From an uncultured Caulobacter sp. (GTDB lineage Bacteria > Pseudomonadota > Alphaproteobacteria > Caulobacterales > Caulobacteraceae), in assembly GCA_966252285.1 (NCBI GenBank), contig CBINOL010000009.1, forward strand, positions 743 through 64,742: a stretch of 64,000 nucleotides of DNA, in the 5' to 3' direction. Under the pieces are notes generated by a model. That model did not search any database and was not told where the DNA came from. It worked only from the letters and a program-made list of their open reading frames with translations. The translations under genes were made by a program, and so were the position numbers. Below are positions 6,784 through 25,743 of this stretch, piece by piece. The first letter of the stretch is position 1. The number at the start of each line of letters is the position of its first letter.

Positions 6784-6875
6784 TTTTTAGTCCGGCTTAC
6801 AAACTCTCGCAGTTCGTTGCGTATTCTGTAGTCGGCGCGATGGGCGCACAAGGCGCACCTCACAAGGAGCGTGCG

Positions 6876-7771: not shown

Positions 7772-8986
7772 TCAGCCCTTATAGAGATCCGCGTCTGGAT
7801 CCTGCTTGCCGCGTACCTCCGTCGATACGATTTCGGCGGCGATGGCGGAGTAGGTGATGCCGTTGCCGCCGAACCCCATGACGGCCCAGGTGTGGTCCAT
7901 GCCCTCCACAGGGCCGATGCTGGGCAGGCCGGTGGCGCTGGAGCCGAACGCGCCCGCCCAGACGTAGTCGATGGCGAAATCGACATCGGGCAAGAGGCGC
8001 TGGAGCTTGGCGGTCAGGATGGCGCTTTTACGCTCCAGTTTCTTCGGATCCTCATGTGCGGCGGCGTCGGACTCGTCCTCGCCGCCGGCGATGATCCGGC
8101 CTTCGCGGTCCATGCGCAGATAGAGGTACGGATCGGACGCCTCCCAGACGAGCGTATCGGCCAGCCAGGTCGGGCGGCGCCTGCCGGACTTGGAGGCCAG
8201 TGCCCAGGTCGACACGACGCTGGCGCCCGGCGTCGGCACACCCTTCGGAAATTCGTAGCCGCAGCAGAACACGACGTGCTTGGCGCGCACCGCATGGCCG
8301 GTGTCCGTCAGCAGGGTCACGCCGTCGGGATCGCTGATGGCCTGGGTCACCTCGACCGGCGACCATATCCTGGCGCCGCGAGCGTGGGCGCGCCGCAGGA
8401 GGCCCGCCGCCAGGCGCGCCGGATCGCCGGCCGCCGCCCCGGTCGAAAGGATCGCGCCGGTTCGATCCAGGCCGAAGCGATCGCCAAGCTCGGCCTTGCC
8501 CAAATAGCGGCTGTCGAGGCCGATCTGCGCTCGGGCTTGGGCTTCCGCATCGAGAGCGCGCGAGCCATAGGCTTCGCCGGCGAGATAGAGCGAGGATTTC
8601 GGGCGAAGGCCGCAGCCGATCCGCTCTTCGGCTACGATCCGGCGCAGGTCCTCCACGGCCCTGTACGATCGCAGATAGGCTCGCCTGGCCTTGGCAGCGC
8701 CAATCCTGTCGCTCAACGCCGTCAACGGGAGATCTATCTCCCATTGCAGCAGGGCGGTCGAGGCCATGGTCGAGCCAGTCAGGGGAGGGCGGCGGTCGAG
8801 CACGGCGACCGAATGATCCTTCGACAGTTCGTGGGCCATGAACGCGCCGCTGATCCCGGCCCCCACGATGGTGACGTCGACGCTTATCGCCTGGATCAGA
8901 GGGCGCGTCGGCACGCCGAGGCCATGGCTGTCGGCCCACAGCGATCTTCCGGTTCTTAGGTCACGTTTCCTGGTCGCGCCGGTCAT
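7772..8986 (-). CDS. FAD-dependent oxidoreductase (DAO/glycine-oxidase-like)
   Basis: IVGAGISG dinucleotide fold, GSTMASTALL, MGFGGNGITYS; start taken at MTGATRKRDL within a longer ORF call. Confidence 0.88.
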   Translation of the reverse strand: MTGATRKRDLRTGRSLWADSHGLGVPTRPLIQAISVDVTIVGAGISGAFMAHELSKDHSVAVLDRRPPLTGSTMASTALLQWEIDLPLTALSDRIGAAKARRAYLRSYRAVEDLRRIVAEERIGCGLRPKSSLYLAGEAYGSRALDAEAQARAQIGLDSRYLGKAELGDRFGLDRTGAILSTGAAAGDPARLAAGLLRRAHARGARIWSPVEVTQAISDPDGVTLLTDTGHAVRAKHVVFCCGYEFPKGVPTPGASVVSTWALASKSGRRRPTWLADTLVWEASDPYLYLRMDREGRIIAGGEDESDAAAHEDPKKLERKSAILTAKLQRLLPDVDFAIDYVWAGAFGSSATGLPSIGPVEGMDHTWAVMGFGGNGITYSAIAAEIVSTEVRGKQDPDADLYKG

Positions 8987-9009
8987 GGGCCCTCCGCCTG
9001 AGCGAGGCA

Positions 9010-9035
9010 AAGTCCCGGGAGCAGGGCGAGGTTCC
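9010..9035 (-). promoter_or_regulatory. Weak candidate sigmaT/EcfG-type promoter GGAAC-N17-ACTT
   Basis: Motif just upstream of the oxidoreductase start; -10 element is a poor match. Confidence 0.35.
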
Positions 9036-9060
9036 GCGTCGATCGCGGCGGGCGCAAAAT

Positions 9061-9852
9061 TCAACCAACCCTGTCGATCCGGAAGCTCTGCTCGACCAGT
9101 TGCGCCTCCCCGAAGATCGTCATGAAGGCGATGTCGGCGGCGTCGCGGCCGGACGCCACGCGAACGAGCCCACTGATCGGCGCCTTGCCGGTAGCGTCGA
9201 TCAGGCGCCATCGCCCGCCCAGATAGACCTCGGCGACCGCGTGCAGGTCCGGCGGCTCCAGGCCCCAGGCATAGGCGCTGACCGCTCTGGCCGGAATATC
9301 GGCGGCGCGGCACAGCGCGATGAGGAGATGACTGAAGTCGCGACAGACGCCGGCGCGGTCGATGAAGGTCTCCACCGCCGTCGTCGCGCTGTGGCTGACG
9401 CCGGCCTGGTAATCGATGTTGGCGGCGATCCAGTCGAGGATCGCCATGACCCGCCGTCCGCCTGACAAAGCGCCGAACTGGCGATCGGCGAACCGCTCCA
9501 GGCGGTCGGAGGGGCTGTAACGGCTGGCGCGCAGGAAGGGCAGCACCTGCGCCGGCAAATCGCGGATCGCCACGGCGGGCGCGTCTTCAAGCTCGTGATC
9601 CCGTGGCGTAACCTCGATCTGGGCCCGGTAAGTCACGCTAACCCGGCCCGCGGCGGTGAAGACCGTCCTGCGTTCCTGGGTCGCTGGATCATCGACGCCC
9701 ACGGCGTCGATGTTCGGTGAGAACGTCAGGGTCTCGGATCGAACCGACTGGTCCGGTCCACGAGCGGCTTCGACCAGAAGAAGCACCTCGCAGGGGTCGG
9801 CGAAATCGTAGGTCAGCGAGGCTTCGACGTCGAACGTGAACGGTTGGGTCAT
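9061..9852 (-). CDS. Transglutaminase-like family protein
   Basis: GVCRDFSHL (Cys), DLHAVAEVY (His), WRLIDAT (Asp) triad; start taken at MTQPFTF. Confidence 0.9.
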   Translation of the reverse strand: MTQPFTFDVEASLTYDFADPCEVLLLVEAARGPDQSVRSETLTFSPNIDAVGVDDPATQERRTVFTAAGRVSVTYRAQIEVTPRDHELEDAPAVAIRDLPAQVLPFLRASRYSPSDRLERFADRQFGALSGGRRVMAILDWIAANIDYQAGVSHSATTAVETFIDRAGVCRDFSHLLIALCRAADIPARAVSAYAWGLEPPDLHAVAEVYLGGRWRLIDATGKAPISGLVRVASGRDAADIAFMTIFGEAQLVEQSFRIDRVG

Positions 9853-9940
9853 CGGACTTCGCCGCCGGCTCGGATCTCGTGGTCCGCATTCATTGCTGTC
9901 GCCCTCCTGCGACAGCACGCCCGGCCGTCGGCCAACTGCA

Positions 9941-9965
9941 AATCCGCAACGCTCCACGCCGTTCC
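9941..9965 (-). promoter_or_regulatory. Candidate sigmaT/EcfG-type promoter GGAAC-N16-GATT
   Basis: About 90 nt upstream of the transglutaminase start, in the correct orientation. Confidence 0.5.
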
Positions 9966-10031
9966 AGGAACGCCTGGTCAAGCCTGACCGCTGGCGCGGC
10001 GACAGCTGGAGGACAGCGGCATGGGGCGCCC

Positions 10032-10337
10032 TTAATAGCGCCAGAGGAACGGCGCCGATTGCCAGATGATGGCGATGGCGGCGAGGGTCGAAGCCAGGGC
10101 TGACAGGCGCGGGACGAACACTCCGCCGAGGCGGGGGCGTCGCGAGGCGCGCCAAGCGCGAACGGCCAGGGCGACTGCGGCCAGGACGCAGGCGAGCGTC
10201 ATGCCCGCGAAAAGCCGGGTCAGCGGCGCCTGGTGCTCGTACGGGGATATGTCGGCCAGACTGGCGATCGCATAGGCGGCCAGGAAATGCGCCGCCCAGA
10301 GCAGAAGACCGCCAAGCAGGGAAAGCCAGATGTTCAC
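10032..10337 (-). CDS. Small membrane protein at the end of the oxidase operon
   Basis: GTG start overlapping the coxA stop; three hydrophobic segments. Confidence 0.7.
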   Translation of the reverse strand: MNIWLSLLGGLLLWAAHFLAAYAIASLADISPYEHQAPLTRLFAGMTLACVLAAVALAVRAWRASRRPRLGGVFVPRLSALASTLAAIAIIWQSAPFLWRY

Positions 10338-12877
10338 GTAAGGCCTGCCGGGAAGAGGCGGGTGACGCCGAGCCCGACGAGGCCCTGGCCGGCGGTGTAG
10401 GCCAGGAACAGGCCGACCAGTTCGATTGTCGCGGGCCTGTCCGGGCCGACATAGCCGTAGAGCCGTCGCAGCAGCACATAGAGCGCCATGATCGCCGCGA
10501 CGGCGACGAAGAAGCCCTGCCAGGCCAGGATGGCGTGGACGATCGCGCCCTGGGCGCTGGCCTGGGGCGACAGCCCGGTCAAGCGCCAGGACGACAGGTC
10601 GACGCCGAAGGCCAGCGCCAGCAGGGCGCCCCCGACCAGGACCATGGCGGTGGCCAGCCACGGACGCGCGAGCTGGCGTCTGGCCAGCAGGGCCAGGGCG
10701 CCGCCGGCCGCCGCCGATAGGGTCGCAATGACCAGCGAGGCGGTGTCGGGCGGCGGTCGCCAGGCGTCAGGATTGCGGCTCCACAGGAAGACGTAGGAGA
10801 ACACCGACATGGCCAGCACCATGCCGCCGACGACCAGGGTCACGACCATGGCCCACCAGCCGGTGCTCGACGGTCCGCTGGCGTAGGTCGGCAGCTCGAT
10901 TCCGGCGCCGACGTCGACCGTCTGCTGCGGCAGAGGATGGTCGAGGAACCAGCACCAGCGCAGCACGCAGAGGATGGCCAGAACACCGCTCAGCACCGAG
11001 GCGGCGTAGGCCTGCACGGTCAGCAGCAGAAAGAAGCCGGCGGTGAACACCGCCGCCCAGACATGCCAGCCCGAGGGGACGGGCATTCGCAGCAGATGCT
11101 GCGGCTCGGCGTTGACCGGGCTGGTCACCAGGGTCTCGCGGCCGCCGGTGGGCGCGCCGGGCAGGAAATAGCGTCCGGCGGCGACGTCGCGGGCGAGGTT
11201 CTTCTGGTCCCAGAGTGGATAGAGCGACGTCACCACCGGGATGCTGCGGGTGGAGTAGAGCCCCGCCGGCAGCCATTCCAGTCCGCCGCCCTCGTAGACG
11301 TTGCCCGCCTCGCTGGCGCCGAACGGGCGAAAATTGCGGACCATGTCGATCACCCAGATCAGCACGCCGGCGGCGAAGACGAAGGCGCCAATGCTGGAGA
11401 TGAGGTTCGGCCACTCCCAGTCGCGGCCGGCGGCATAGGTGTAGACGCGCCTGGGCATGCCCATCAGGCCGGTCAGGTGCATGGGCAGGAAGGCCAAGTG
11501 CATGCCGGCGAACATCAGCCAGAACGTCCAGCGGCCCAGCCGCTCGCTCAAGGGGCGGGCCGAAACCATCGGCGTCCAGTAGTAAATCGCCGCGAACAGC
11601 GGAAAGACCATCCCGCCGATCAGCACGTAGTGCAGGTGGGCGACGATGAAGTAGGTGTCGTGGGCCTGCCAGTCGAAGGGGACCATGGCCGCCATCACGC
11701 CCGTCAGCCCGCCCATGACGAAGATCAGCAGCGAGCCCAGCACGAAGAGCCCCGGCGCGTTGAACTTCATCCGGCCCGAGGCGACCGTGGCGATCCAGGA
11801 AAAGACCTGCACGCCCGCCGGCAAGCTGACGGCCATCGAAGCGGCCGAGAACATCCCGACCGACACGCCCGGCAGGCCGGTGGTGAACATATGGTGGGCC
11901 CAGACCCCGAAACTGATGAAGCCCGTGGCCAGGAAGGCCAGCACCACCAGCCAGTGACCGATCAGCGGCGTGCGCGCCACGGCCGGCACGATGGTCGACA
12001 TCGCGCCCGCCGCCGGCAGGAAGATGATGTAGACCTCGGGGTGGCCGAAGAACCAGAAGAGGTGCTGCCACAGCATCGGGTCGCCGCCGCGCGCGGCGTC
12101 GAAGAACGGCCAGCCCAGGGCGCGCTCCAGCTCCAGCAGGGTGGTGGCCAGGATCACCGACGGGAAGGCGATGATGATCATGCCGGCGAACACCAGCATG
12201 GCCCAGGCGAACACCGGCAGCTTGTCCAGCGTCATGCCGGGCGCGCGGGTCTTGAGCACGCCGACGATGATCTCGATGGCCCCGGCGATGGCCGAGATCT
12301 CGATGAAGCCTATGCCCAGCAGCCAGAAGTCGGCGTTGATGCCCGGCGAATAGGTGGTCGAGGTCAGCGGCGGATACATGAACCAGCCGCCGTTCGGCGC
12401 CAGGCCGAAGAACAGCGAGCAGAAGAAGGCCAGACCGCCGATCAGATAGGCCCAGAAGGCGTAGGCCGACAGGCGCGGAAAGGGCAGGTCGCGCGCGCCC
12501 AGCATCTGCGGCAGCAGCAGCACCCCCAGCGCCTCGACCGCCGGCACCGCGAACAGGAACATCATCACCGTGCCATGCATGGTGAAGATCTGGTTGTAGG
12601 TTTCCTGCGCCAGCACGCCCTGCATCGGCAGCGCCAGCTGCGTGCGCATCAGGAGCGCCAGCACCCCGGCCAGCACGAAGAACAGCATGGCCGCGCCGAC
12701 GTAGTAGACGCCGACATAGTTGTTGTTGATGACGGTGATCCACTCCCACCGCCGGGGCGCGCACCAGATCGCCTCCAACTGCTCAAGCTCGCCCTTCGGC
12801 CGCCGTCCCTTGGTCGGAAAGCGCTCGTAGAGGGCGGTGTCGAAGCCGGTCTCCGACGGCGTGGGAGGTCCGCTCAC
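10334..12877 (-). CDS. ctaD: Heme-copper oxidase subunit I (A-family, GHPEVY) fused to a C-terminal subunit III-like region; proton-channel residues atypical
   Basis: Metal ligands intact (HGTVMMF, GHPEVY, WAHHM, HDTY, AHLHY, MPRR); 847 aa with extra C-terminal TM helices. Confidence 0.95.
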   Translation of the reverse strand: MSGPPTPSETGFDTALYERFPTKGRRPKGELEQLEAIWCAPRRWEWITVINNNYVGVYYVGAAMLFFVLAGVLALLMRTQLALPMQGVLAQETYNQIFTMHGTVMMFLFAVPAVEALGVLLLPQMLGARDLPFPRLSAYAFWAYLIGGLAFFCSLFFGLAPNGGWFMYPPLTSTTYSPGINADFWLLGIGFIEISAIAGAIEIIVGVLKTRAPGMTLDKLPVFAWAMLVFAGMIIIAFPSVILATTLLELERALGWPFFDAARGGDPMLWQHLFWFFGHPEVYIIFLPAAGAMSTIVPAVARTPLIGHWLVVLAFLATGFISFGVWAHHMFTTGLPGVSVGMFSAASMAVSLPAGVQVFSWIATVASGRMKFNAPGLFVLGSLLIFVMGGLTGVMAAMVPFDWQAHDTYFIVAHLHYVLIGGMVFPLFAAIYYWTPMVSARPLSERLGRWTFWLMFAGMHLAFLPMHLTGLMGMPRRVYTYAAGRDWEWPNLISSIGAFVFAAGVLIWVIDMVRNFRPFGASEAGNVYEGGGLEWLPAGLYSTRSIPVVTSLYPLWDQKNLARDVAAGRYFLPGAPTGGRETLVTSPVNAEPQHLLRMPVPSGWHVWAAVFTAGFFLLLTVQAYAASVLSGVLAILCVLRWCWFLDHPLPQQTVDVGAGIELPTYASGPSSTGWWAMVVTLVVGGMVLAMSVFSYVFLWSRNPDAWRPPPDTASLVIATLSAAAGGALALLARRQLARPWLATAMVLVGGALLALAFGVDLSSWRLTGLSPQASAQGAIVHAILAWQGFFVAVAAIMALYVLLRRLYGYVGPDRPATIELVGLFLAYTAGQGLVGLGVTRLFPAGLT

Positions 12878-13839
12878 TTCAGGCTCTCCAGGTAGGCGGA
12901 GACGTCGCGCAGTTCCTTCCCCGTCAGTACTGGATAGGCCGGCATCCGGTTGCCGGGCTTGATCGCCTGGCTGTCGCCGATCCAGCCGGCCAGGGTTCCC
13001 TGGTTGTTGGGCAGGACGCCGGCGCCCAGGGTGCGGCGGGAGCCGACATGGGTCAGGTCCGGGCCCGCCAGGCCGTTGGCGTCGGTTCCCCGAATGGCGT
13101 GGCAGGCGCCGCAGCCGGCGCGGTCAAACACCGCCTTGCCGGCGGCATGGGCCGGCGAAGCGACGGCAGGCGTGGCTTGGCTGGCTCTCCAGACCTCGTA
13201 GTCCGCCGGCGCGTGGGCGACTACGATCAGGGCCATCAGGGCGTGCGGGCCGCCGCAGAACTCAGCGCACTGGGCGCCGTACTCGCCGGGCTGGTCAGCC
13301 TGGATGCGCAGGATGTTGCGGCGGCCAGGGATCATGTCGAGCTTGCCGTTCAGCCGCGGGATCCAGAGGCTATGGATGACGTCCGTCGACTCCAGTTCCA
13401 GCGCCACGGGCCGACCGGCGGGGATATGGATCTCGTTGGCGTCCTGGAAGGCCTCGCGGCCGGCCGCGTCGAGATAGCCGACCCGCCACCACCACATCTC
13501 GCCGGTGACGCGAACGCGCAGTTCTCCGGGGCGGGGCGGCTCGCTGAGGCGATGGGTCAGCGAAAGGCCCCAGATCAGCAGGGCGCTCAACACCACGACG
13601 GGAAAGGCGATCCCGGCGATCCAGACGAGACGCTCGCCGCCCACGCGCTTGCGCCAGGCCCGTGGTGCGAAGAGCGCGAGGGCCAAGGCGATGACCACGA
13701 TCGCCAGCACGGCGGCGGTCATGGCCAGCAGGCCCCAGGTCAGGCTGTTCAACGGCGCGGCGAACGGTCCGGCTGGATCCAGCGCCGGCGGCGGCCAGCC
13801 CTTCAGGCTCTCGTGAGCGGGCGGCGCGTCAGTCTGCAT
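12874..13839 (-). CDS. ctaC: Cytochrome c oxidase subunit II with C-terminal cytochrome c (caa3-like)
   Basis: CuA ligands DVIHSLW and CAEFCGGPHALM; heme c CGACH; start taken at MQTDAPP. Confidence 0.93.
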   Translation of the reverse strand: MQTDAPPAHESLKGWPPPALDPAGPFAAPLNSLTWGLLAMTAAVLAIVVIALALALFAPRAWRKRVGGERLVWIAGIAFPVVVLSALLIWGLSLTHRLSEPPRPGELRVRVTGEMWWWRVGYLDAAGREAFQDANEIHIPAGRPVALELESTDVIHSLWIPRLNGKLDMIPGRRNILRIQADQPGEYGAQCAEFCGGPHALMALIVVAHAPADYEVWRASQATPAVASPAHAAGKAVFDRAGCGACHAIRGTDANGLAGPDLTHVGSRRTLGAGVLPNNQGTLAGWIGDSQAIKPGNRMPAYPVLTGKELRDVSAYLESLK

Positions 13840-14218
13840 CGAGCGAATAGAGATAGGCCGCAACGTCGCGGGCTTGTTCTTCCGTCAGGCCAGAGGCGGG
13901 CATGGCGGTGTCTGGAGCCATGGCCGGCGCATCTCGAAGCCAGGCGACCATGACGTCCGGACGGTTGGGGTAGCGCCCGGCGATCATCGCCTGGGCCTGC
14001 AGGTTGTCCAGCGACCCGCCGACCGCGCCGCGTGGCCACTGTACGCCGGGAATATGATGGCACGCGCCGCAACCCTCGGCTTCAATCAGTCGCAGGCCTT
14101 CGGTGGGATTGGCGCCTGACATCTGGTGTGAGGAAACGGCTTTGTCCGCGCAGGCGACCAGCGTCGCGCCGGCCAGGCCGATCATCGCCGCGCTCGCTGT
14201 CCTGGTTCCACCGATCAC
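13829..14218 (-). CDS. Mono-heme c-type cytochrome, probable lipoprotein
   Basis: CGACH, distal Met in DTAMP, LVAC lipobox-like; GTG at 14218 preferred over TTG at 14248, which overlaps the promoter motif. Confidence 0.85.
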   Translation of the reverse strand: MIGGTRTASAAMIGLAGATLVACADKAVSSHQMSGANPTEGLRLIEAEGCGACHHIPGVQWPRGAVGGSLDNLQAQAMIAGRYPNRPDVMVAWLRDAPAMAPDTAMPASGLTEEQARDVAAYLYSLDAD

Positions 14219-14246
14219 CAAGGCCCCTTCGAAAACCCGAAGGCTC

Positions 14247-14279
14247 AACCCGTCGGAACGGTCGCGGTTCCGCAGGGTT
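14247..14279. promoter_or_regulatory. Interlocked divergent sigmaT/EcfG-type promoters, GGAAC-N16-GGTT on each strand
   Basis: Plus strand: GGAAC 14255-59, GGTT 14276-79. Minus strand: GGAAC 14271-67, GGTT 14250-47. Confidence 0.6.
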
Positions 14280-14287
14280 TACGCCAA

Positions 14288-15022
14288 GTGCGCAGCTCCG
14301 CCTTCTTCCTTGCCGTTGCCCTCGCCGCGCTCAGCGCCTGCGACCGCGCGCCGCCCCGGACCGACGCCCTGCTGAGCGTCGACGGGCGGACCATCGCCAT
14401 GAGCGGCGGCGCCGGCGGAGCAGCTCATGCCTGCTTCTCCTGCCACGGCCTCGACGGCATGGGCGACGGCGTATCGGTCCCCCGCCTGGCCGGTCTCGAC
14501 GCCGGCTATCTGCAGAAGCAGATGGAGGACTACGCCTCGGGCATCCGGCCCGACAAGGTGATGGGGCCGGTCGCCAAGCCGCTCGACGACAGGGCTCGCC
14601 GCGCCGTTGCGATCTACTATTCAAGCCTGCCGACGGCGAGCGGCGGCATATCCGGCGGACCGCCGCCAGCGCTCTGGACGAAAGGCGACCCAATGCGTGG
14701 TCTCGCGCCCTGCGCCGCCTGCCATGGAACTGAGGGCCAAGGCGTCGGCGCGGGCCAGCCGGCCGTGGCCGAGCAACCCGCGGCCTATACCGTCGAACAG
14801 TTTAGTCGCTGGAGGCGCGCGGTGCGCCGCAACGATCCTCGCGGGGTGATGACCATGATCGCGAGCAGGCTCAGCGAGGCCGAAGTCGCCGCCTTAGCGG
14901 GCTGGCTAGAGACGCGACCCTCTTCTCCAGCGCCCGCCAGCGGCGCTGCCAGCGCGTCCGCCGTCGAGGCCGCTGCGGCAGGATCGGCAGCATCCCGTGA
15001 AGGACGTCGTCGCGATCGATGA
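14288..15022 (+). CDS. Di-heme cytochrome c4/c553-like lipoprotein
   Basis: CFSCH and CAACH, PRLAG..YL.KQ..DY motif, LSAC lipobox. Confidence 0.9.
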   Translation: MRSSAFFLAVALAALSACDRAPPRTDALLSVDGRTIAMSGGAGGAAHACFSCHGLDGMGDGVSVPRLAGLDAGYLQKQMEDYASGIRPDKVMGPVAKPLDDRARRAVAIYYSSLPTASGGISGGPPPALWTKGDPMRGLAPCAACHGTEGQGVGAGQPAVAEQPAAYTVEQFSRWRRAVRRNDPRGVMTMIASRLSEAEVAALAGWLETRPSSPAPASGAASASAVEAAAAGSAASREGRRRDR

Positions 15023-15581
15023 GATGGTGCTTCAGCGCCGCGCCGACATGGATAGGGATCATGGCGACAAGGCTGAGCGCCAGGCCCCAGTGCAGCCACT
15101 CGGCGACGGCCTCGATCCTCCAGAGCGTCGCGTGCGAGAGCTCCCCCAGCGGCAGCAGCGGCCAGGGCGTCAGGTTCAGCAGGGTCAGCTCGGTGTCGCG
15201 GCTGGTCGCCGAGACGATGGCCCAGCCGCTCAACGGCAGGCCGAACAGGCAGGTGTAGAAGACGTAGTGGGTGACGTGGGCGGCCGTGCTCTCCCACCCC
15301 GGTTTGTCGGCGTCGTTGATGACGGCCGGGGCGAACAGCCGCCAGCCGACACGACCCAGCACCAACACGAGCATCAGCACGCCGATCAGGTAGTGCAGTT
15401 CGTAAGCCGCCTGCATCTGGGCGCCGGGTGCGGCGCGGCCCATCCACCAACCCCAGCCGAGCTGAAAGGCCACGAGCCCGGCCATGGTCCAGTGAAAGAC
15501 AATGGCCACCGGCGAATAGCGTCCCTGGTCGGCATGGCCGGCGGCCCATTCGAAGATGTTTTCGATCAAGCGGTCGATCAT
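14871..15581 (-). CDS. Cytochrome b561/YceJ-like membrane cytochrome b
   Basis: RYSPVAIVFHW, HYLIG, HVTHY...LPLSGW and LH...IHVGAALKHH motifs. Confidence 0.9.
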   Translation of the reverse strand: MIDRLIENIFEWAAGHADQGRYSPVAIVFHWTMAGLVAFQLGWGWWMGRAAPGAQMQAAYELHYLIGVLMLVLVLGRVGWRLFAPAVINDADKPGWESTAAHVTHYVFYTCLFGLPLSGWAIVSATSRDTELTLLNLTPWPLLPLGELSHATLWRIEAVAEWLHWGLALSLVAMIPIHVGAALKHHLIDRDDVLHGMLPILPQRPRRRTRWQRRWRALEKRVASLASPLRRRLRPR

Positions 15582-16297: not shown

Positions 16298-16300
16298 GGC

Positions 16301-18649
16301 TCAGCCTTTCGGCAGGGCGTAGGCGATCAGGTAGTCGCCCTCGGGCGTCTCCATGAAGTGATGCCCGCCGGCCATGATCACCACGTACTGGCGGCCGTCC
16401 TGCTCATAGACCATCGGATTGGCCTGGCCGCCGGCCGGCAGCACGTCGCTCCACACGGTCTTGCCGGTCTCGATGTCGATGGCGCGGAAGAGGTTGTCGG
16501 TCGCCGCGGCGATGAAGACCAGGCCGCCAGCCGTCACCGCCGAGCCGCCGTTGTTTGGCGTGCCGATGTCGACCGGCAGCATCGAGGGTATGCCGAAGGG
16601 GCCGTTGCGCCGCGCCGTGCCGAACGGACGATCCCAGAGGGTGGCGCCGCTCTTCAGGTCGATGGCGCGGATGCCGCCGTAGGGCGGGCGCTTGCACAGC
16701 ATGCCCGTGCCCGGCATCCGCCAGCCGGCGTTGACATCGATGGCGTACGGAACGCCTGTCTGCGGATCGCCCGCGCCCTCGGCCCCGCCGGCCTTGGTCT
16801 TTTCGCGCGGATCGCCGCGCGGGAACCAGCCCTTGGCGTCCGCCACGGCGCGCGGCACCAGCTGGTTGTAGTTGGGCATGTCGTTGTAGTTGGCGACGAT
16901 CACGCCACGGCGCGGGTCCAGCGCGATCCCGCCCCAGTCCGAGCCGCCGTTGTAGCCGGGATACTGGATCCAGCGGGCCTTGGCTTCGGGCGGGGTGTAG
17001 GGGCCGTTGTAGATCGCGCGCTTGAACTGGATGCGGCAGATCATCTGGTCGATCGGCGACATGCCCCACATGTCCTTCTCGGTCAGACGGGGCTTGGCCA
17101 GGCTGTGATAGAGCGAGAACGGCTGGGTCTTGGCTCGCTCGGCCGGCTCGACACCGCCGCCGGGAACGGCGCGCTCCTCGACACCCGTCAGCGGTCGGCC
17201 GGTGCGCCGGTCGAGGATGTAGATCTCGCCCTGCTTGCTGGGCAGGATGATCGCCGGCACGCGGCCGCCCGCCGTGGGGAAGTCGACCAGCGTGCCCTGC
17301 GAGCCCAGGTCGTAGTCCCAGACGTCGTTGTGGGCGGTCTGGAACTTCCAGCGCGGCTTGCCGGTGGCCACGTCCAGGGCGACAAGGGCCGAGGACCATT
17401 CCTTCTCCGCCGGACGGCGCAGCGAGCTGTAGTAGTCGGCGGCCGAATTGCCCATGGGCAGGTAGACGAGGCCCAGGGCGTCGTCGCCGGTGGCGGTGGT
17501 CCACATATTCGGCGTGCCGGGCGTGTAGGTGCGGCCCTGAGGCGGCAGACCTGTGATGTCGGGCGCCATCATGTCCCAGGCAAAGCGCATCTGGCCGGTG
17601 ACGGCGTCATAGCCCTGGATGACGCCCGACGGCGCCCAGCGCTTCTGGCCGTCCAGCACCTGGTGGCCGGTGACGATGATCCCGCGCACGATGGTCGGCG
17701 CAGACGTGATCGACACCATGCCGGGCACGACTTGGCCCATGCCGATCTTGATGTCGACCTGGCCGCCCTGGCCAAAGTCCGCGCAGGGCTTTCCGTTGCG
17801 GGCGTCGACGGCGATCAGCCGGCCGTCCAGCGTGCCCTCGATGATCCGAGCGGCGCAGGCGGCGTCGGGCGCGGCGCCAGGTTGGACGAAGTAAGTCACG
17901 CCCCGGCAGGCGGCGGTGTAGGGGATGGCGTCTTTCGAGACCTTCGGGTCGTAGGCCCAACGCTGCTTGCCGTCGCGGGCATCCAGCGCGAACAGCTTGT
18001 TCATCGCCGAGCACAGATAGACGCTGTCGCCGATCTTCAGCGGGGTGGTCTCGGCGCCGAACTTCTCGGGCAGGTCGCCGGTGCGGAAGGTCCAGACGCG
18101 CTCCAGCTTGCCGACATTGGCCTTGGTGATCTGGGCGGCGGCCGAGAAGCGCTGGGCGTCGTGCGAGCCGCCATAGGCGATCCAGTCGGCGCCCATGGCA
18201 GCGCCGGGTCCGGCGAGCGCCGCAGGCAGCGGGTTGGCCGGCGTTGGCCGATTGTCCATCGCGACGATCGCGCCGCCTACGCCTACCAGCAGGACGAACG
18301 CGGCGAGACCGGCCAGCATCGGCTTGCTTCCCCGTCGCGTCAGCACCGGCAGCGACAGCACGACCAGCAGCAGGATCACCAGCGGCGCGACGAGACGCGG
18401 CACGAGCGCCCAGCCGTCGAGCCCCGTCTCCCAGAGCGCCCAGACCAGGGTCAGCGCAAAGACGACGACATAAACGACCACGCCTGCCGGCTTCAGCCTG
18501 GCGATCAGCACGCCGGCGATCAGCAGGCCAAGCCCGGCCAGGACGTAGTAGGGCGACCCGCCCAGGACGGCGAGCCAGGCGCCGCCGACGCCCAGCACCA
18601 GACCGATCACAACCAGGAGAGCGCCCAGCAGGCGAACCAATACCGACAT
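16301..18649 (-). CDS. Membrane-bound PQQ-dependent dehydrogenase (glucose/quinate/shikimate family)
   Basis: N-terminal TM helices, then ETTPLK, CRGV, W.FQTAH.D.WDYD and PAGGQANPM motifs. Confidence 0.95.
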   Translation of the reverse strand: MSVLVRLLGALLVVIGLVLGVGGAWLAVLGGSPYYVLAGLGLLIAGVLIARLKPAGVVVYVVVFALTLVWALWETGLDGWALVPRLVAPLVILLLVVLSLPVLTRRGSKPMLAGLAAFVLLVGVGGAIVAMDNRPTPANPLPAALAGPGAAMGADWIAYGGSHDAQRFSAAAQITKANVGKLERVWTFRTGDLPEKFGAETTPLKIGDSVYLCSAMNKLFALDARDGKQRWAYDPKVSKDAIPYTAACRGVTYFVQPGAAPDAACAARIIEGTLDGRLIAVDARNGKPCADFGQGGQVDIKIGMGQVVPGMVSITSAPTIVRGIIVTGHQVLDGQKRWAPSGVIQGYDAVTGQMRFAWDMMAPDITGLPPQGRTYTPGTPNMWTTATGDDALGLVYLPMGNSAADYYSSLRRPAEKEWSSALVALDVATGKPRWKFQTAHNDVWDYDLGSQGTLVDFPTAGGRVPAIILPSKQGEIYILDRRTGRPLTGVEERAVPGGGVEPAERAKTQPFSLYHSLAKPRLTEKDMWGMSPIDQMICRIQFKRAIYNGPYTPPEAKARWIQYPGYNGGSDWGGIALDPRRGVIVANYNDMPNYNQLVPRAVADAKGWFPRGDPREKTKAGGAEGAGDPQTGVPYAIDVNAGWRMPGTGMLCKRPPYGGIRAIDLKSGATLWDRPFGTARRNGPFGIPSMLPVDIGTPNNGGSAVTAGGLVFIAAATDNLFRAIDIETGKTVWSDVLPAGGQANPMVYEQDGRQYVVIMAGGHHFMETPEGDYLIAYALPKG

Positions 18650-18677
18650 CGAACTCTCCACCAACGCTTGGTGCGAC

Positions 18678-18740
18678 AACACCGGCGGGCGAGGGGGCGT
18701 TCCGTGGCGAGGCTCTGAACCTCGCGGCGCGTGGCGTGTT
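18678..18740. promoter_or_regulatory. Divergent pair of sigmaT/EcfG-type promoter motifs
   Basis: Minus strand GGAAC-N17-TGTT (18703-18678) faces the PQQ dehydrogenase; plus strand TGAAC-N16-TGTT (18716-18740) ends 8 nt before the 18749 ATG. Confidence 0.55.
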
Positions 18741-18748
18741 CAGCCGAC

Positions 18749-19231
18749 ATGACCAACACAGCCCTGATCCCCTCCGCCCTGATCGGCGCCGTCGCCAGCG
18801 CCCGGTCGATGACCCCGATGGCCACCATCGCCTCGGCCCGGCTGGCGGGTCGCTCGACACCCGGCAAGCTCGTCCTGCTCGACCATCCGCTGTTCAAGTT
18901 CGGCACCCTGGCCATGGGGATCGGCGAGCTGCTGGGCGACAAGATGAAGACCGCGCCCGATCGCACGGTCTTCCTGGGCCTGCTGGCCCGGATCGCCAGC
19001 GCCGGCATCGCCGGCGCGGCCCTGGCCCCGCGTGGCCGTGAGAAGGCCGGCGCGAGCGTGGCGATCGCGACCGCGGTGCCGCTGGCCTATCTGACGCTGG
19101 CGGGACGCAAGCGGGCGATGGCGAAGTTCGGCCAGACGCCCAGCGGTCTCGTCGAGGACGCCCTGGTCGTCGCCGCGGGCGTCGCGACCATCGCCTTCTT
19201 CACGCACCAGCAGTGGGGCGCCCGCGGCTGA
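18749..19231 (+). CDS. DUF4126-like membrane protein
   Basis: A.GELLGDK...PDR motif and GQTPSGLVEDAL; hydrophobic. Confidence 0.7.
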   Translation: MTNTALIPSALIGAVASARSMTPMATIASARLAGRSTPGKLVLLDHPLFKFGTLAMGIGELLGDKMKTAPDRTVFLGLLARIASAGIAGAALAPRGREKAGASVAIATAVPLAYLTLAGRKRAMAKFGQTPSGLVEDALVVAAGVATIAFFTHQQWGARG

Positions 19232-19264
19232 CGCGGCGCCCCTTCGTCGACGTCAGCGGCGGCG

Positions 19265-20164
19265 TCAGGCGATGCCTGCGCCGCCGGTCACGCCATAGAC
19301 CTCGCCGGTCGTGAAGCTGGCCTCCTGCGAGGCCAACAGCACATAGACCGGCGCGATCTCCACCGGTTGGCCAGGTCGGCCGAACTGGCTGTGCTGGCCA
19401 AAGTGCTGGACCTTTTCCTGGGTCTGGCCGCCGCTGGGTTGCAGCACCGTCCAGAACGGGCCGGGCGCCACCGCATTGGCCCGCACGCCGTCCTTGATCA
19501 GCTGCTTGGCCAGCGCCTTGGTGAAGGCGACGATGCCGGCCTTGGTGGTAGCGTAGTCGAGCAGGTTCTCGGACGGCTCGTAGGCCTGCACCGAAGCGGT
19601 ATTGATCACCGCCGCGCCGGGCCGCAGGTGAGGGCGCGCCGCCTGGGTGATCCAGAACATGGCGTAAAGATTGGTTTTGAGCGTGTGGTCGAACTGCTCG
19701 CTGTCTATGGCAGCGATGTCGGGGCGGCTGACCTGCTTGCCGGCGTTGTTGACCAGGATGTCGAGACCGCCCAGGCCCTCGACGGCCTTGGCCACGAGTT
19801 CGCGGCAGAAGGCCTCGTCCTTGATGTCGCCGGGCAGGGCGAGGGCCTTGCGACCTTCGGCCTCGATCAGGGCGATGACCTCGCGGGCGTCGCTTTCCTC
19901 GCTCGGCAGGTAGCCGATCGCCACGTCGGCGCCCTCGCGGGCATAGGCGATGGCGGCGGCGCGGCCGATGCCGGAGTCGGCGCCAGTGATCAGCGCCTTG
20001 CGGCCGACGAGCTTGCCTGAGCCGCGATAGTTTTCCTCGCCGTGGTCGGGCTTGGGATGCATCTTGGCGGCGAGGCCCGGCGCCGGTTGCGGCTGGGCCG
20101 GGAAGGGCGGCTTGGGATACTGCTCGCGCGGGTCCTGCATACGCAGGCGGTCGTCCTGGCTCAT
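19265..20164 (-). CDS. General-stress SDR oxidoreductase (YghA/YdaD-like)
   Basis: PKPDHGEENYRGSGKL, TGADSGIGRA, DYATTK, GRPGQPVEIAP; start taken at MSQDDRL. Confidence 0.93.
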   Translation of the reverse strand: MSQDDRLRMQDPREQYPKPPFPAQPQPAPGLAAKMHPKPDHGEENYRGSGKLVGRKALITGADSGIGRAAAIAYAREGADVAIGYLPSEESDAREVIALIEAEGRKALALPGDIKDEAFCRELVAKAVEGLGGLDILVNNAGKQVSRPDIAAIDSEQFDHTLKTNLYAMFWITQAARPHLRPGAAVINTASVQAYEPSENLLDYATTKAGIVAFTKALAKQLIKDGVRANAVAPGPFWTVLQPSGGQTQEKVQHFGQHSQFGRPGQPVEIAPVYVLLASQEASFTTGEVYGVTGGAGIA

Positions 20165-20241
20165 CGTCGTCTCCGGTGTGGGGGAAGGCGGCGCGCCGCA
20201 GGGACGGCGCCGCCGGGAGGAGGGAGGAAGCGAGCCGACCG

Positions 20242-22335
<2,094 letters not shown>

Positions 22336-22364
22336 GTCAGTCTCCTGGAATGGGATCGTGGGGC

Positions 22365-22390
22365 AATCCGAAAGCCCCGAGGCCGGTTCC
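22365..22390 (-). promoter_or_regulatory. Candidate sigmaT/EcfG-type promoter of katE, GGAAC-N17-GATT
   Basis: Motif ends about 30 nt upstream of the katE ATG. Confidence 0.55.
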
Positions 22391-22484
22391 GAGCGTGGCC
22401 GGATCTGGCTGATGATCGTGTTGATGATGAAGCTGTACGGACCGGCCGGGCGTTGAGGGCGAGCCAACTCAGAGGAGATCGCCT

Positions 22485-22664
22485 ATGCCCGCCAAGTCCG
22501 CCGCCCAGCAGAAAGCCGCCGGCGCGGCCCTGTCCGCCAAGCGCGGCGACACGCCCAAGAGCAAGCTCAAGGGCGCATCCAAGTCGATGCTGTCGATGAG
22601 CGAGAAGCAGCTGGAAGAGTTCGCGCACACCAAGCGCAAGGGCATGCCCGAGCATAAGCACTGA
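22485..22664 (+). CDS. DUF3008-family small basic protein (59 aa), absent from the ORF track
   Basis: Hand translation MPAKSAAQQKAAGAALSAKRGDTPKSKLKGASKSMLSMSEKQLEEFAHTKRKGMPEHKH; AGAGGAG RBS. Confidence 0.88.
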   Translation: MPAKSAAQQKAAGAALSAKRGDTPKSKLKGASKSMLSMSEKQLEEFAHTKRKGMPEHKH

Positions 22665-22744
22665 CACCTTCGATGCGCCGGTCCGACCGAGCGGCGACCT
22701 GCTCCTGAAGGGAACGATCGCCGCCCGGTCGATCCTGCTGGATG

Positions 22745-23290
22745 TCAGTGGGAGGGCTGCTTGGAGAACTCCGCCATCAGCTCTTCCTTGCGCGCGGCCA
22801 TGCGTTCGCCCATGGCTTCGAGGTCCTCGTCGCCCTTCTTGGCCTGGGCGAAGAAGCCGCCGGGCTGTTCCTCTTCCTTGACGTGGTGCTTGATGTACTC
22901 GCCCAGCACCTTGACCTTGGCGTCGTAGAACTCCTCGCCGGGCTTCATCGCCTCGATCTCGGCGATCAGCTTCTTGGCGCCGTCGTGCTCGACATAGGCC
23001 TCGTCGATCAGGTCGTCCTCCACCTCGCCGCGGCTTTCGGGATAGAGGATCTCCTCCTCGATCTGGGTGTGGACCTTCAGGGCCAGGGCGATCCTGTCGA
23101 ACAGCGCCTGCTTTTCGCGATCGCTCTCCAGCTGTTCGTACTCGTCGAACATCGCCTCCACCTCGCGGTGATCGGCCTTGAGCAGGCGGATCGCCAGAGG
23201 ATCGCGCCGACCCGTGCGGCGGGTGCGGCGAGCCTTGGCGGACTTTCCCGATTTCGAGGCGGTCTTGGTGGCGGCTTTGGCGGTGGCCAT
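22745..23290 (-). CDS. Hemerythrin/HHE-domain protein with a basic N-terminal tail
   Basis: LKADHREV, HTQIEEEILYP, EHDGAK, HHVKEEE. Confidence 0.9.
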   Translation of the reverse strand: MATAKAATKTASKSGKSAKARRTRRTGRRDPLAIRLLKADHREVEAMFDEYEQLESDREKQALFDRIALALKVHTQIEEEILYPESRGEVEDDLIDEAYVEHDGAKKLIAEIEAMKPGEEFYDAKVKVLGEYIKHHVKEEEQPGGFFAQAKKGDEDLEAMGERMAARKEELMAEFSKQPSH

Positions 23291-23322
23291 GGCGACTCTC
23301 CCTGTGAGTTGATCGCCGCTTG

Positions 23323-23348
23323 AAGCCCGCGCCCTGGATGCTGGTTCC
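23323..23348 (-). promoter_or_regulatory. Candidate sigmaT/EcfG-type promoter GGAAC-N17-GCTT
   Basis: Upstream of the hemerythrin gene, in the correct orientation. Confidence 0.45.
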
Positions 23349-23455
23349 TATGGCCATGCTAGTTGAGAGACGATTTCAGTCACACAGCACCTTGGAGCCA
23401 TTACTCGCTAAAAATCAGTCGGTTATGGCGGGTTGTGGGTCGGGTTTTCGACATA

Positions 23456-23480
23456 GGAACGGGTTCCGATCGCCCGCATT
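23456..23480 (+). promoter_or_regulatory. Candidate sigmaT/EcfG-type promoter GGAAC-N16-CATT
   Basis: 48 nt upstream of the Gln-rich ORF. Confidence 0.55.
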
Positions 23481-23528
23481 TGTGCTGAGCCGGAGCAACC
23501 GGCGACCAGCCATTCAAGGGAGACGGCC

Positions 23529-23813
23529 ATGGGCGAGAACGCCAACAACGATCGCATGCAGCAGCAGTCGAGCGACGCGCAGCGCCAGCAAGTCGGCCAG
23601 CAGAACCAGCAGGGCGACACCCGCCAGCCGCAGCAACAACAGAACAACCCCCAGCAGGCCCAGCCGGATCAGCAGAACCAGCAGGGCGAGCGTCGTCCGG
23701 GCGAGCGCCAGGAAGAGCGCGACATCGAAGGCGAGGGTGACGGCCTCGCCGGCGGCGTCGACTCCGGCGCGATCCAGCCGGGCAAGACCGGGCAAGGCGA
23801 CGTCGAGCGCTAA
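23529..23813 (+). CDS. Gln/Asn-rich low-complexity hypothetical protein
   Basis: AGGGAG RBS, host-like codon usage, hydrophilin-like composition. Confidence 0.7.
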   Translation: MGENANNDRMQQQSSDAQRQQVGQQNQQGDTRQPQQQQNNPQQAQPDQQNQQGERRPGERQEERDIEGEGDGLAGGVDSGAIQPGKTGQGDVER

Positions 23814-23823
23814 TCCAGGCGGA

Positions 23824-23858
23824 GGCCGGCCGCGATCTGCGGCAGATCGCGGCCGGCC
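23824..23858. repeat. Perfect 17-1-17 inverted repeat
   Basis: GGCCGGCCGCGATCTGC-G-GCAGATCGCGGCCGGCC, read directly. Confidence 0.9.
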
Positions 23859-23862
23859 GCCG

Positions 23863-24120
23863 ATGGTCGAGATGTTCGGGGGTCAGATTGCATTTGTGTT
23901 TGGAGTGTCGCCCTTCGAGGGCGGCTGGTCGGTGAAGCTGTGCGACACGGGCGAGGTGCTGTTCTTCGAGACCGGCGGCCAGGCCGAGCGGGAAGCGCGA
24001 CGGTTGGCGGCTGCCTATCCTGGCGGCGCGCGCGTCCGGGTTTTGGATCTTCGCCAGCAGTTGGCGGGGGAATGGGCTCCCAAGAGCGGGGCGGAAGGTC
24101 CGCTCGGAATTCCAGCTTAG
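23863..24120 (+). CDS. Small hypothetical protein
   Basis: MVEMFGGQIAFVFGVSPFEGGWSV...FETGGQAEREARRLA; looks like a folded protein; start uncertain. Confidence 0.55.
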   Translation: MVEMFGGQIAFVFGVSPFEGGWSVKLCDTGEVLFFETGGQAEREARRLAAAYPGGARVRVLDLRQQLAGEWAPKSGAEGPLGIPA

Positions 24121-25199
24121 CGCACCGAGCCCGACGGTTCGGCGGTAAAGCGGATGTCGTAAGCCGTGCCCGGCGGTCCGGATCGTTCGAGCTGGCCATG
24201 CAGTTGCTGGACGAGCGAGCGCACCAGCCTCGTGCCGCCGCCTTTCCGAGCTGAAGCAGGATCGAAGCCGATGCCGTCGTCGGCGACGGCGAGATGAAGC
24301 CGGCCCACCTCGTCCAGGTCGAAGGTGACGGTGATGAGGCCAGCGCGATCGTCTGGGAAGGCGTATTTGAGGGCGTTCTCCACCAGCTCGTTGACAATCA
24401 GACCGATCGGCACGGCCATCATCGAGCCGATGTCGATCCTGGCGACGTCCACGCGCAGGCCTACGGGGCGAACGCCGATGACGCCGTCGCGCAGGTCGTC
24501 ACAGATCGAGCAGATGTAGTCGCGCGCGCAGATGGCGGTCGCCTCGTCGGAGAGGTGCAAGCGCGTATAGAGCCTGCCTAGAACCCCGATGCGTCCGGTC
24601 GCCTCCTTTACGGCGCGCTGCGCGTCGGGGTCGGTGATCTCCCGAAAAGACAGGTGCAAGAGGCCGTTGACGGAGGCCAGGTGGTTCTTGACCCGATGGT
24701 TGATGTCTTCGATCAGCAGCTTGTTGAAGTCGTTGGCGCGTTTCAGCGCCAGGCTCGTCCTGGCTAGGCGCTCGGCCGTGGAGCGTAAGGCCTCGACCGT
24801 AACGGCCAGAAAAAGGCCGATCAGCACGTAGAGCGCCAGGGGCAGGGCGTCCTTCAGGTTCGGCAGCTCGAACGAGCGGACGGTCGGGACGAAGAAGTAC
24901 CAGGCCATGCCCGTGCTCAGCAGGACGGCAAACACCCCGGTCCCGCGATCGAACAGCGCCGAGATCAGGATGATCGCCGGAAAGAACAGTAGAAACGGAA
25001 ACCCGCCCATGTAAGGCGCGGCCGCCACGCGAAGTGCGAAGAACAGCAAGATGATGGCGGTGGCCAGCAGATAGCGCAGCGCCACCGGGGCGGCGCGCAG
25101 CGGCGCAGAGGCGCGGAAAATCGACTCCAGTTTCAAAGGCGAGGGTCCATGAGCCGGGGCATACCTTGAATGCTTGGCTTGCGATTTGGAGCCAACCAC
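24117..25199 (-). CDS. Sensor histidine kinase (DUF4118-like membrane input, HisKA_2/HWE-type core)
   Basis: H-box DINHRVKNHL, N-box ELVENALKY, G-box DDGIG; true start may be TTG at 25136. Confidence 0.9.
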   Translation of the reverse strand: MVGSKSQAKHSRYAPAHGPSPLKLESIFRASAPLRAAPVALRYLLATAIILLFFALRVAAAPYMGGFPFLLFFPAIILISALFDRGTGVFAVLLSTGMAWYFFVPTVRSFELPNLKDALPLALYVLIGLFLAVTVEALRSTAERLARTSLALKRANDFNKLLIEDINHRVKNHLASVNGLLHLSFREITDPDAQRAVKEATGRIGVLGRLYTRLHLSDEATAICARDYICSICDDLRDGVIGVRPVGLRVDVARIDIGSMMAVPIGLIVNELVENALKYAFPDDRAGLITVTFDLDEVGRLHLAVADDGIGFDPASARKGGGTRLVRSLVQQLHGQLERSGPPGTAYDIRFTAEPSGSVR

Positions 25200-25452
25200 C
25201 TAGGCGGGTCAAACCATGAACCCGGCAACGCGGTGCTCCCTTTCATGCCGCCAGAAGCCGGCTTCAGCTTTGCGGGTCGATGGCCGTGGTCCCGGACAAG
25301 CGACGGCGGCTACGTTGCGTGCTACGGGTCGGTCGTTCTGCCCGGGCGAAGAGTCGAGGATTGCTTATGGCGCCTGTGGAGACGATGACGCCTTGCAGGG
25401 CCGGCGAAGAGTCGAAGGGGTCCCAAGGTCCGCTCCTGGCGCGACGCAGTTA

Positions 25453-25743
25453 CTAGCGGCTCCTGACCGGACGAGCCTTTCGAAGGCGGACGTCGGGAAT
25501 CGGGGCGCGGGGCGCCGTATCGGATGACGCGCCGTCTTGCCTGTTCCGCAGCCAGGCTTCAATCTCAGTCAGGTTCCAGGCTACGCTGCGTCGGGTAAGT
25601 TGAAAGCGGCGTGGAAACAGCCCCTTCTGCTCAAGGTCGTAGATCGTTGAATCCGCTAGTGGGACCAATTGTCGAAGGTCGCGACGTCTGATTAGTCTGG
25701 GGAAGGTCTCCTCCAGATCTTGAGGGTCGATGAAGCGGATCAT
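25453..25743 (-). CDS. alpA: AlpA-family phage regulator / recombination directionality factor
   Basis: RLIRRRDLRQLVPLADSTIYDLEQKGLFPRRFQLTRRSVAWNLTEIEAW; located at the island end. Confidence 0.88.
   Translation of the reverse strand: MIRFIDPQDLEETFPRLIRRRDLRQLVPLADSTIYDLEQKGLFPRRFQLTRRSVAWNLTEIEAWLRNRQDGASSDTAPRAPIPDVRLRKARPVRSR

Follow-up and report, generated by a model that had tools for sequence, protein, structure and literature searches.

In the genome of an uncultured Caulobacter, a 24.7-kb insertion at the 3′ end of guaA probably holds a mosaic of stress-gene blocks that are part of the general stress regulon of Alphaproteobacteria and carry promoters of the EcfG type. The window analyzed here is a stretch of 64,000 nucleotides (contig C9, CBINOL010000009.1, positions 743-64742) from a genome of 5.34 Mb in 278 contigs, with a guanine-plus-cytosine (GC) content of 69.1%. 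Its nearest public loci are those of Caulobacter radicis 695, 'C. vibrioides' T5M6, C. zeae 410, Caulobacter sp. D5, and C. hibisci; because these strains are the closest, the host is a soil or rhizosphere Caulobacter.

The island would comprise about nine transcription units, each headed by the motif GGAAC/N16-17/nnTT, with about 16 stress and respiratory genes in total over about 16 kb. Upon stress, phosphorylated PhyR (PhyR~P) would bind NepR and free sigma-EcfG (sigmaT), whose gene is on another contig (C44). Once released, sigmaT would guide RNA polymerase to the island promoters, leading to their co-induction with the host stress regulon. The resulting package of a large catalase, a YghA-type short-chain dehydrogenase/reductase (SDR), a hemerythrin, a hydrophilin-like protein, and periplasmic sugar oxidation with a dedicated oxidase would serve in stationary phase, desiccation, or oxidative stress. 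We infer transcription of the island promoters by sigmaT, arrival of the blocks by transfer, and continuing mobility.

The motif is well known from related bacteria. In C. crescentus, the SigT motif GGAAC-N16-CGTT lies at the -35 position of mapped start sites (PMC4287350), and the same motif is recognized by EcfG1 of R. etli (PMC3892343). The island sites resemble this EcfG (ECF15, an extracytoplasmic function or ECF group)/sigmaT regulon in their GGAAC -35, their spacer of 16-17 nt, and a T-rich -10 ending in TT, ahead of stress genes. An earlier note on this DNA had listed nine such motifs and claimed that none has an exact CGTT. All nine are present, eight as GGAAC-N16/17-nnTT and one as TGAAC-N16-TGTT, and the claim about their -10 elements is correct. 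The sites are:

9010-9035, minus strand: candidate DAO promoter, GGAAC-N17-ACTT, 23 nt before the ATG, with a weak -10
9941-9965, minus strand: candidate transglutaminase promoter, GGAAC-N16-GATT, 88 nt before the start
14247-14271, minus strand: oxidase operon promoter, GGAAC-N16-GGTT, 28 nt before the GTG
14255-14280, plus strand: dihaem cytochrome c promoter, GGAAC-N16-GGTT(T), start codon 8 nt past the -10
18678-18703, minus strand: promoter of the pyrroloquinoline quinone (PQQ) dehydrogenase operon, GGAAC-N17-TGTT, 28 nt before the ATG
18716-18740, plus strand: candidate promoter of a gene for a 160-amino-acid (160-aa) protein, TGAAC-N16-TGTT, 8 nt before the ATG
22365-22390, minus strand: katE promoter, GGAAC-N17-GATT, 29 nt before the ATG, with an AGGAG ribosome-binding site
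23323-23348, minus strand: hemerythrin promoter, GGAAC-N17-GCTT, 32 nt before the ATG
23456-23481, plus strand: hydrophilin-like promoter, GGAAC-N16-CATT(T), 48 nt before the ATG

The -35 is exactly GGAAC at eight of the nine sites and the spacer is 16-17 nt at all nine. Each site is correctly oriented with a start codon 8-88 nt downstream, and a ribosome-binding site is usually recognizable. The dihaem cytochrome c and 160-aa mRNAs are predicted to be leaderless because their start codons lie 8 nt past the -10 (14255-14290 and 18716-18751), and the former is probably so. The gene for a DUF3008 protein was considered as a further EcfG target; a CGTT is suitably spaced from its start codon, but the -35 is missing and it was not counted.

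Most of these promoters are decided by the upstream regions of orthologous genes, where the chance rate of the motif is about 1.5% per 350-nt stretch (computed from 466 sites in 2 x 5.34 Mb). For the PQQ dehydrogenase, the motif is found within 350 nt upstream in 66 of 77 orthologous loci, including those of Caulobacter, Brevundimonas, Phenylobacterium, Sphingomonas/Sphingobium, and Bradyrhizobium, and in neither of two gammaproteobacterial orthologues (Rheinheimera, Paraglaciecola). It stands just upstream of the hemerythrin gene in 27 of 29 family orthologues, and alignment with C. radicis shows the -35 and -10 kept while the remaining spacer has diverged. For katE, each of the five closest orthologues (75-80% identical) has a motif located between -59 and -68, the spacers being unrelated, and overall a motif precedes 10 of 28. 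The oxidase operon promoter recurs in 13 of 14 homologues and the dihaem promoter in 12 of 14, down to 45-60% protein identity and mostly as GGTT or TGTT, and the former is preserved in four Caulobacter genomes despite diverging flanks. Upstream of the 160-aa gene, five Caulobacter genomes have identical -35 and -10 elements around differing spacers; in strain D5, homology begins exactly at the TGAAC motif and the adjacent DNA differs. The hydrophilin-like promoter of C. radicis keeps GGAAC and CGCATT around a rewritten spacer, which is N17 there and N16 here. The three orthologues nearest to the DAO gene (71-74% identical) retain a GGAACC at about position -52. Conservation backs seven of the nine sites, the DAO site in part, and the transglutaminase site not. 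Correct placement together with conservation across the Caulobacteraceae, and for some genes across the Alphaproteobacteria, argues that the motifs are genuine EcfG/sigmaT-type promoters.

The two divergent cytochrome c promoters (14247-14280) overlap back to back, so that their -35 elements form the palindrome GGAAC-N7-GTTCC. Four Caulobacter genomes preserve this palindrome; in more distant homologues, both promoters are retained, but not the palindrome.

The sites are also concentrated in this part of the window. Positions 7772-25199 hold eight unique GGAAC sites, where the genome-wide density predicts 1.5 (Poisson P = 1.9e-4), and one of 400 first-order Markov simulations attained eight, so the region is enriched over background. 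Non-coding DNA makes up 8.1% of the region, yet it holds all eight. This test used a hand-made gene map: the automatic gene caller missed two genes, those for the transglutaminase-like protein and the dihaem cytochrome c, and made the DAO gene too long, and three true sites were thereby scored as 'not upstream' in the genome-wide analysis. For the 466 unique sites genome-wide, the highest densities per 17.5 kb are reached in this region and on contig C44.

Contig C44 encodes the stress cascade that the earlier note had presumed for the host, with phyR, nepR, ecfG, and a HisKA_2 kinase all present:

C44:12408-13229, minus strand: phyR
C44:13500-13598: nepR, NepR match of 58 bits
C44:13613-14224: ecfG (sigT)
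C44:14221-15939: HisKA_2 kinase (phyK)

The arrangement is the classical one of the EcfG/sigmaT regulon, with phyR divergent from nepR-ecfG-phyK and autoregulatory consensus promoters. The nepR and phyR promoters are canonical (GGAACCCGATGCGGAATGTGGCGTT and GGAACCGCCCTCGCGCAGGGCACGTT, GGAAC-N16-CGTT and GGAAC-N17-CGTT). These genes are surrounded by ten GGAAC-N16/17-nnTT sites in 17.5 kb (C44:856-24700), several of which have an exact CGTT and precede small genes. No sigma factor of its own was found for the island in Pfam scans of its proteins.

A gene map built from Pfam, NCBIfam, and PADLOC bears out the cargo proposed earlier, namely katE, a YghA-like SDR, a hemerythrin, DUF3008, a transglutaminase-like protein, a hydrophilin-like open reading frame (ORF), and a respiratory cluster:

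7772-8986, minus strand: DAO-family FAD-dependent oxidoreductase, 404 aa, ATG at 8986 (Pfam DAO 4e-50)
9061-9852, minus strand: transglutaminase-like protein, 263 aa (Pfam Transglut_core 2e-21)
10032-14218, minus strand: oxidase operon (Pfam COX1 1e-142, COX2, and Cytochrom_C; NCBIfam CtaD 2.5e-197)
13829-14218, minus strand: cytochrome c of the oxidase operon
12874-13839, minus strand: COX2-cytochrome c fusion of the oxidase operon
10334-12877, minus strand: COX1 of the oxidase operon, 847 aa
10032-10337, minus strand: 101-aa ORF of the oxidase operon
14288-15022, plus strand: dihaem cytochrome c (Pfam Cytochrom_C, two stretches)
14871-18649, minus strand: operon of membrane PQQ dehydrogenase, CtaG, and cytochrome b561
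16301-18649, minus strand: membrane PQQ glucose/quinate-type dehydrogenase (NCBIfam PQQ_membr_DH, 938 bits, above cut-off)
15578-16297, minus strand: CtaG assembly factor (Pfam Caa3_CtaG)
14871-15581, minus strand: cytochrome b561 (Pfam Ni_hydr_CYTB)
18749-19231, plus strand: 160-aa protein without a family
19265-20164, minus strand: YghA/PRK06128-type SDR (NCBIfam PRK06128, 529 bits, above cut-off)
20242-22335, minus strand: katE, large-subunit catalase (Pfam Catalase 3e-180 and Catalase_C)
22485-22664, plus strand: DUF3008 protein, 59 aa (Pfam DUF3008 9e-27)
22745-23290, minus strand: hemerythrin-domain protein, 181 aa (Pfam Hemerythrin 1.7e-13)
23529-23813, plus strand: hydrophilin-like protein rich in Q, N, E, and G, 94 aa (from its translation)

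The start codon of the DAO gene at 8986 agrees with gene calls on metagenome contigs. Neither the 160-aa protein nor the hydrophilin-like protein matches a Pfam or NCBIfam family. The catalase and the YghA-type SDR (19265-22335) probably form one transcription unit. Within 9853-9940, a 14-codon upstream ORF (MNADHEIRAGGEVR) with its own ribosome-binding site precedes the transglutaminase-like gene, and its TGA overlaps the ATG of that gene (ATGA), which suggests translational coupling or a leader peptide.

The insertion itself is recognized by its borders: about 46 nt from the 3′ end of guaA recur as a direct repeat that bounds the 24.7-kb segment 1560-26278. An exact 25-mer core, GAGTGGGAGTGATCAAGGAAGGCGC, has just two occurrences, 1561-1585 and 26232-26256, where 0 are expected. 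Its attachment (att) sites and the genes near its ends are:

13-1572, plus strand: guaA
1560-1605, plus strand: attL, the left repeat copy, comprising the last guaA codons and the terminator hairpin
2031-5743, plus strand: Lamassu lmuA-lmuC-lmuB (PADLOC: LmuA 2e-14, LmuC 2.8e-11, LmuB 9.4e-73; Pfam Cap4_nuclease)
25453-25743, minus strand: AlpA-type small regulator/excisionase-like protein (PF05930 on record for an identical protein)
26231-26278, plus strand: attR, the right repeat copy, which follows non-coding DNA rich in AT (about 25990-26230)

The 3′ end of guaA is a known target of tyrosine recombinases (PMC5704250), and in this genus it is, by its varied occupancy, a very active insertion hot spot. 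Records with an identical GuaA protein have at least five different downstream contexts, several with an integrase and AlpA. These contexts include an integrase and AlpA with varied cargo, AbiEi/HEPN-AbiV defense genes, and AraC with a giant PATR protein. Three congeners have a second att copy, at distances from guaA of 13, 118, and 140 kb, and a 435-aa integrase ORF adjoins guaA in the 118- and 140-kb cases. The AlpA encoded by the island is 59% identical to the AlpA adjoining the integrase of the C. zeae 410 guaA island. The Lamassu system, whose LmuA is of the Cap4-nuclease type, is complete and occupies the guaA-proximal end, which is the integrase position in sibling islands.

The island recurs at 99.9-100% identity in several ENA and Logan metagenome assemblies. 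One contig, ENA ERZ27393852 NODE_39466 (1828 nt, 1.9x coverage), joins 24725-26279 to 1558-1881 via a single att; this possibly reflects a circular or tandem (attP-type) form, or an assembly artefact across the shared 26-nt core. Exact attP and attB strings had no matches in Joint Genome Institute (JGI) metagenomes, and no relaxase or replication gene was found in the island by Pfam scans. Overall, the 24.7-kb segment is best read as a genuine insertion that is now non-autonomous.

Several results weigh against a mobile origin of the stress block. No PF00589 match exists on contig C9 in six frames with stops read through, and the best match of a guaA-island integrase in the host genome is 26% identical and on another contig. 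In a joined-flank query for the empty site, guaA adjoined the right flank in no relative, and all contigs carrying the flanking OEP protein have the integrated island. GC is 0.59-0.62 at the ends of the insertion (2000-5800 and 25000-26300) and 0.65-0.71 in the stress block, which equals that of the host (0.69). Divergence from C. radicis is also similar, with 93% identity for the cassette and 95% for guaA. Because of this host-like GC and guaA-like divergence, arrival of the stress blocks by transfer is conjectural. Since no relative has the right flank beside guaA, insertion or rearrangement may also have shaped the DNA right of attR (26279 onwards). In C. radicis, the sequence that follows guaA matches host contig C71:22663-24120, and not the right flank of the window.

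Sister genomes show the stress block to be a mosaic. In C. radicis, 10039-23812 is collinear at 93%, while T5M6 and C. hibisci have about 10035-18900 alone. Strain D5 has 10024-18708 followed by SDR-DUF3008-kinase without katE, and C. endophyticus has 16311-19211 alone. The block edge at about 10030 is common to four sister genomes. A survey of the cassette at guaA in other genomes had been proposed; instead, the stress blocks of sister species are at non-guaA sites, on another contig than guaA and among ordinary genes, with different neighbors in each genome (DinB-type polymerase, DUF2391, MarR, GntR, and AsnB across C. radicis, T5M6, C. hibisci, and D5). None of these loci contains the att core. 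Other guaA islands carry 0-2 motif sites, which is background density, so promoter enrichment is a property of the gene blocks and not of guaA islands as such.

A decayed second copy of 18604-19728 lies in the host genome at C57:17155-18060. At 85-89% identity, it has lost internal stretches of about 90-105 nt and spans the promoter region of the PQQ dehydrogenase, the 160-aa gene, and a portion of the SDR gene. In C. radicis and D5, a second copy of the 160-aa gene adjoins DUF2391 and MarR genes.

These observations lend some weight to a tentative alternative in which the EcfG promoters are real, but the stress block is ordinary chromosome that was locally rearranged or recombined into an old, dead island and never travelled. 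The non-guaA location of blocks 10030-18700 and 10039-23812 in C. radicis, T5M6, C. hibisci, and D5 would fit such a local capture, as would the GC and divergence of the cassette and the missing integrase. However, the block lies strictly within the direct repeats alongside the foreign, low-GC Lamassu and AlpA modules, and the decayed copy on C57 argues that the island copy is not simply a displaced native one. The junction contig NODE_39466 further links the right end of the island to its left end. The block may have travelled with the guaA insertion or recombined into it locally. The '~17-kb mobile stress-tolerance cassette' of the earlier note holds in that the genes lie inside a direct-repeat-bounded guaA insertion; it is a mosaic rather than one unit and has no integrase, and the case for its present mobility comes from the one low-coverage junction contig.

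The identity of the sigma factor must also be weighed. The island differs from the EcfG/sigmaT regulon in that the -10 elements of all nine sites deviate from the consensus CGTT, and the membership of its genes is predicted from sequence. The -10 classes ACTT, GCTT, and TGTT are at or near genome-wide background, and four of the nine sites would be doubtful if judged by -10 class alone. Further points against the assignment are that the DAO -10 is not nnTT in two of the three closest orthologues and that the transglutaminase motif occurs in one of 19 orthologues (at least 42% identity). The TGAAC site at 18716-18740 is also a perfect inverted repeat (TGAAC..GTTCA) and could therefore be an operator.

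Another ECF sigma factor, either a SigU-type EcfG paralogue or a member of another group, might accordingly read the motifs, with PhyR-NepR-sigmaT control being partial. An AAC-containing -35 is common to many ECF groups, which leaves room for such a factor, and the host phyR and nepR promoters are exact whereas none of the nine island sites has CGTT. This explanation is nevertheless improbable. The orthologous promoters of the PQQ dehydrogenase and hemerythrin genes in other genera often have an exact CGTT, which marks the family of sites as EcfG-type, and the island lacks a sigma factor of its own. Genome-wide, 31 of 58 matches to GGAAC-N16/17-CGTT (53%) lie just upstream of genes. The corresponding shares are 45% for GTTT, 35% for CATT, 28% for GGTT, and 24% for GATT, against 5-10% for background classes. 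Because these relaxed classes are enriched upstream of genes, the host is taken to employ non-CGTT -10 elements.

A chance or compositional effect of GC-rich DNA, for which the modest and weakly significant excess in the whole 64-kb window might speak (12 pattern matches against 6.55 +/- 2.9 expected, with 5 of 100 shuffles reaching 12), is refuted by the tests run, given the correct orientation of the eight sites and their position, for all eight, in the 8% of non-coding DNA, the average of 1.66 sites for the remaining 29 permutations of GGAAC in 7772-25199, the 0-2 sites of other guaA islands, and the retention of the motif upstream of orthologues far above the chance rate.

The individual components of the island are all known, including EcfG promoters, guaA islands, stress genes on accessory replicons under EcfG, and a stress-induced integrative and conjugative element (ICE). 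Elements inserted at the guaA 3′ end by tyrosine recombinases include the Brucella suis IncP island, GIsul2, and ATE-1 (PMC5704250). Like these islands and integrative and mobilizable elements (IMEs), the Caulobacter insertion has a gene-end direct repeat, an AlpA-type gene, and variable occupancy among relatives. Unlike them, it is without integrase, relaxase, or replication gene, and its AlpA gene is distal rather than adjoining guaA.

Accessory DNA with stress-protection genes that follows the host stress program has been found elsewhere. For instance, R. etli carries EcfG2 and katG on a plasmid (PMC3892343), and genes of ICE3 in Sphingopyxis granuli TFA are stress-induced, as described in a preprint without EcfG promoter analysis (bioRxiv 10.64898/2025.12.11.693706). 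As accessory DNA whose stress-protection genes would follow the host program, the island resembles the R. etli plasmid and ICE3. As a difference from the known sigmaT regulon, C. crescentus itself has katG alone, and its transcription is sigmaT-independent (PMC5869019).

Another such package is the heat/stress-tolerance locus of enterobacteria, an accessory set of stress-protection genes whose expression tracks the host stress program in a different regulatory world. In contrast to all three, the link to EcfG in the Caulobacter island is at the level of promoters, unit by unit, and conjugation machinery is absent. In a limited search of the literature, no published description was found of an EcfG-promoter-wired guaA island in Caulobacter or of conserved EcfG control of the PQQ dehydrogenase/oxidase cluster, nor was there a direct precedent for EcfG regulons on genomic islands.

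The remaining genes of the region lie outside the promoter set:

5857-6765, minus strand: LysR regulator (Pfam)
6876-7718, plus strand: SDR (Pfam)
24117-25199, minus strand: DUF4118-HisKA_2-HATPase histidine kinase with a PhyK/LovK-class kinase core (Pfam)
26329-30513, minus strand: OEP/HlyD/ABC triad in the flank right of attR

A relaxed motif scan found no EcfG motif at the LysR regulator/SDR pair (5857-7718) or upstream of the kinase. The top NCBIfam match of this kinase is PhyK (4.8e-22), far under the cut-off, and the kinase could, speculatively, provide an extra input to PhyR. A more elaborate and rather doubtful version of the EcfG reading makes the island a two-way plug-in, in which about nine EcfG outputs are combined with a HisKA_2 input to PhyR on a satellite island that would still be excised, as the attP-type contig would then reflect, by the integrases of sibling guaA islands. 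If true, such a satellite would disseminate a regulon module together with its sensor.

An Rfam search of 1-30000 found no RNA families. Scans for sigma-70 promoters (3 against 1.7 expected) and terminators (12 against 8.8 expected) were not informative. The sole good sigma-70-like pairs of the region are in the AT-rich stretch 25990-26230 inside attR (TTGTCG-17-TATAAT, 26029-26057). Further along the window, at 40097-44203, consecutive genes for a 179-aa ECF sigma-like protein, a 337-aa protein, and an 843-aa protein look like a FecI/FecR/TonB-receptor unit, judging from ORF size and order alone.

The EcfG reading gives a modest meaning to the idea that this cargo is pre-wired to its host. 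EcfG-type promoters are in place, but the wiring is trivial in the sense that it is ancestral to each gene family and was not acquired for mobility. Because these families carry the promoters wherever they are found, any alphaproteobacterial recipient with PhyR-NepR-EcfG would be expected to read them. The wiring reads as a class-wide promoter code and not as an adaptation of the island. The mechanism is not new; what the finding offers in practice is help with regulon annotation and an example, open to experiment, in which an island would enlarge a regulon. For a soil Caulobacter, about 16 genes are predicted to belong to the general stress regulon. EcfG-type promoters on the PQQ dehydrogenase, the adjacent cytochromes, and the caa3-type oxidase across many Alphaproteobacteria point to a respiratory branch that would be specific to stress or starvation. 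More broadly, a conserved, class-wide sigma motif would let stress genes swap between genomes without rewiring.

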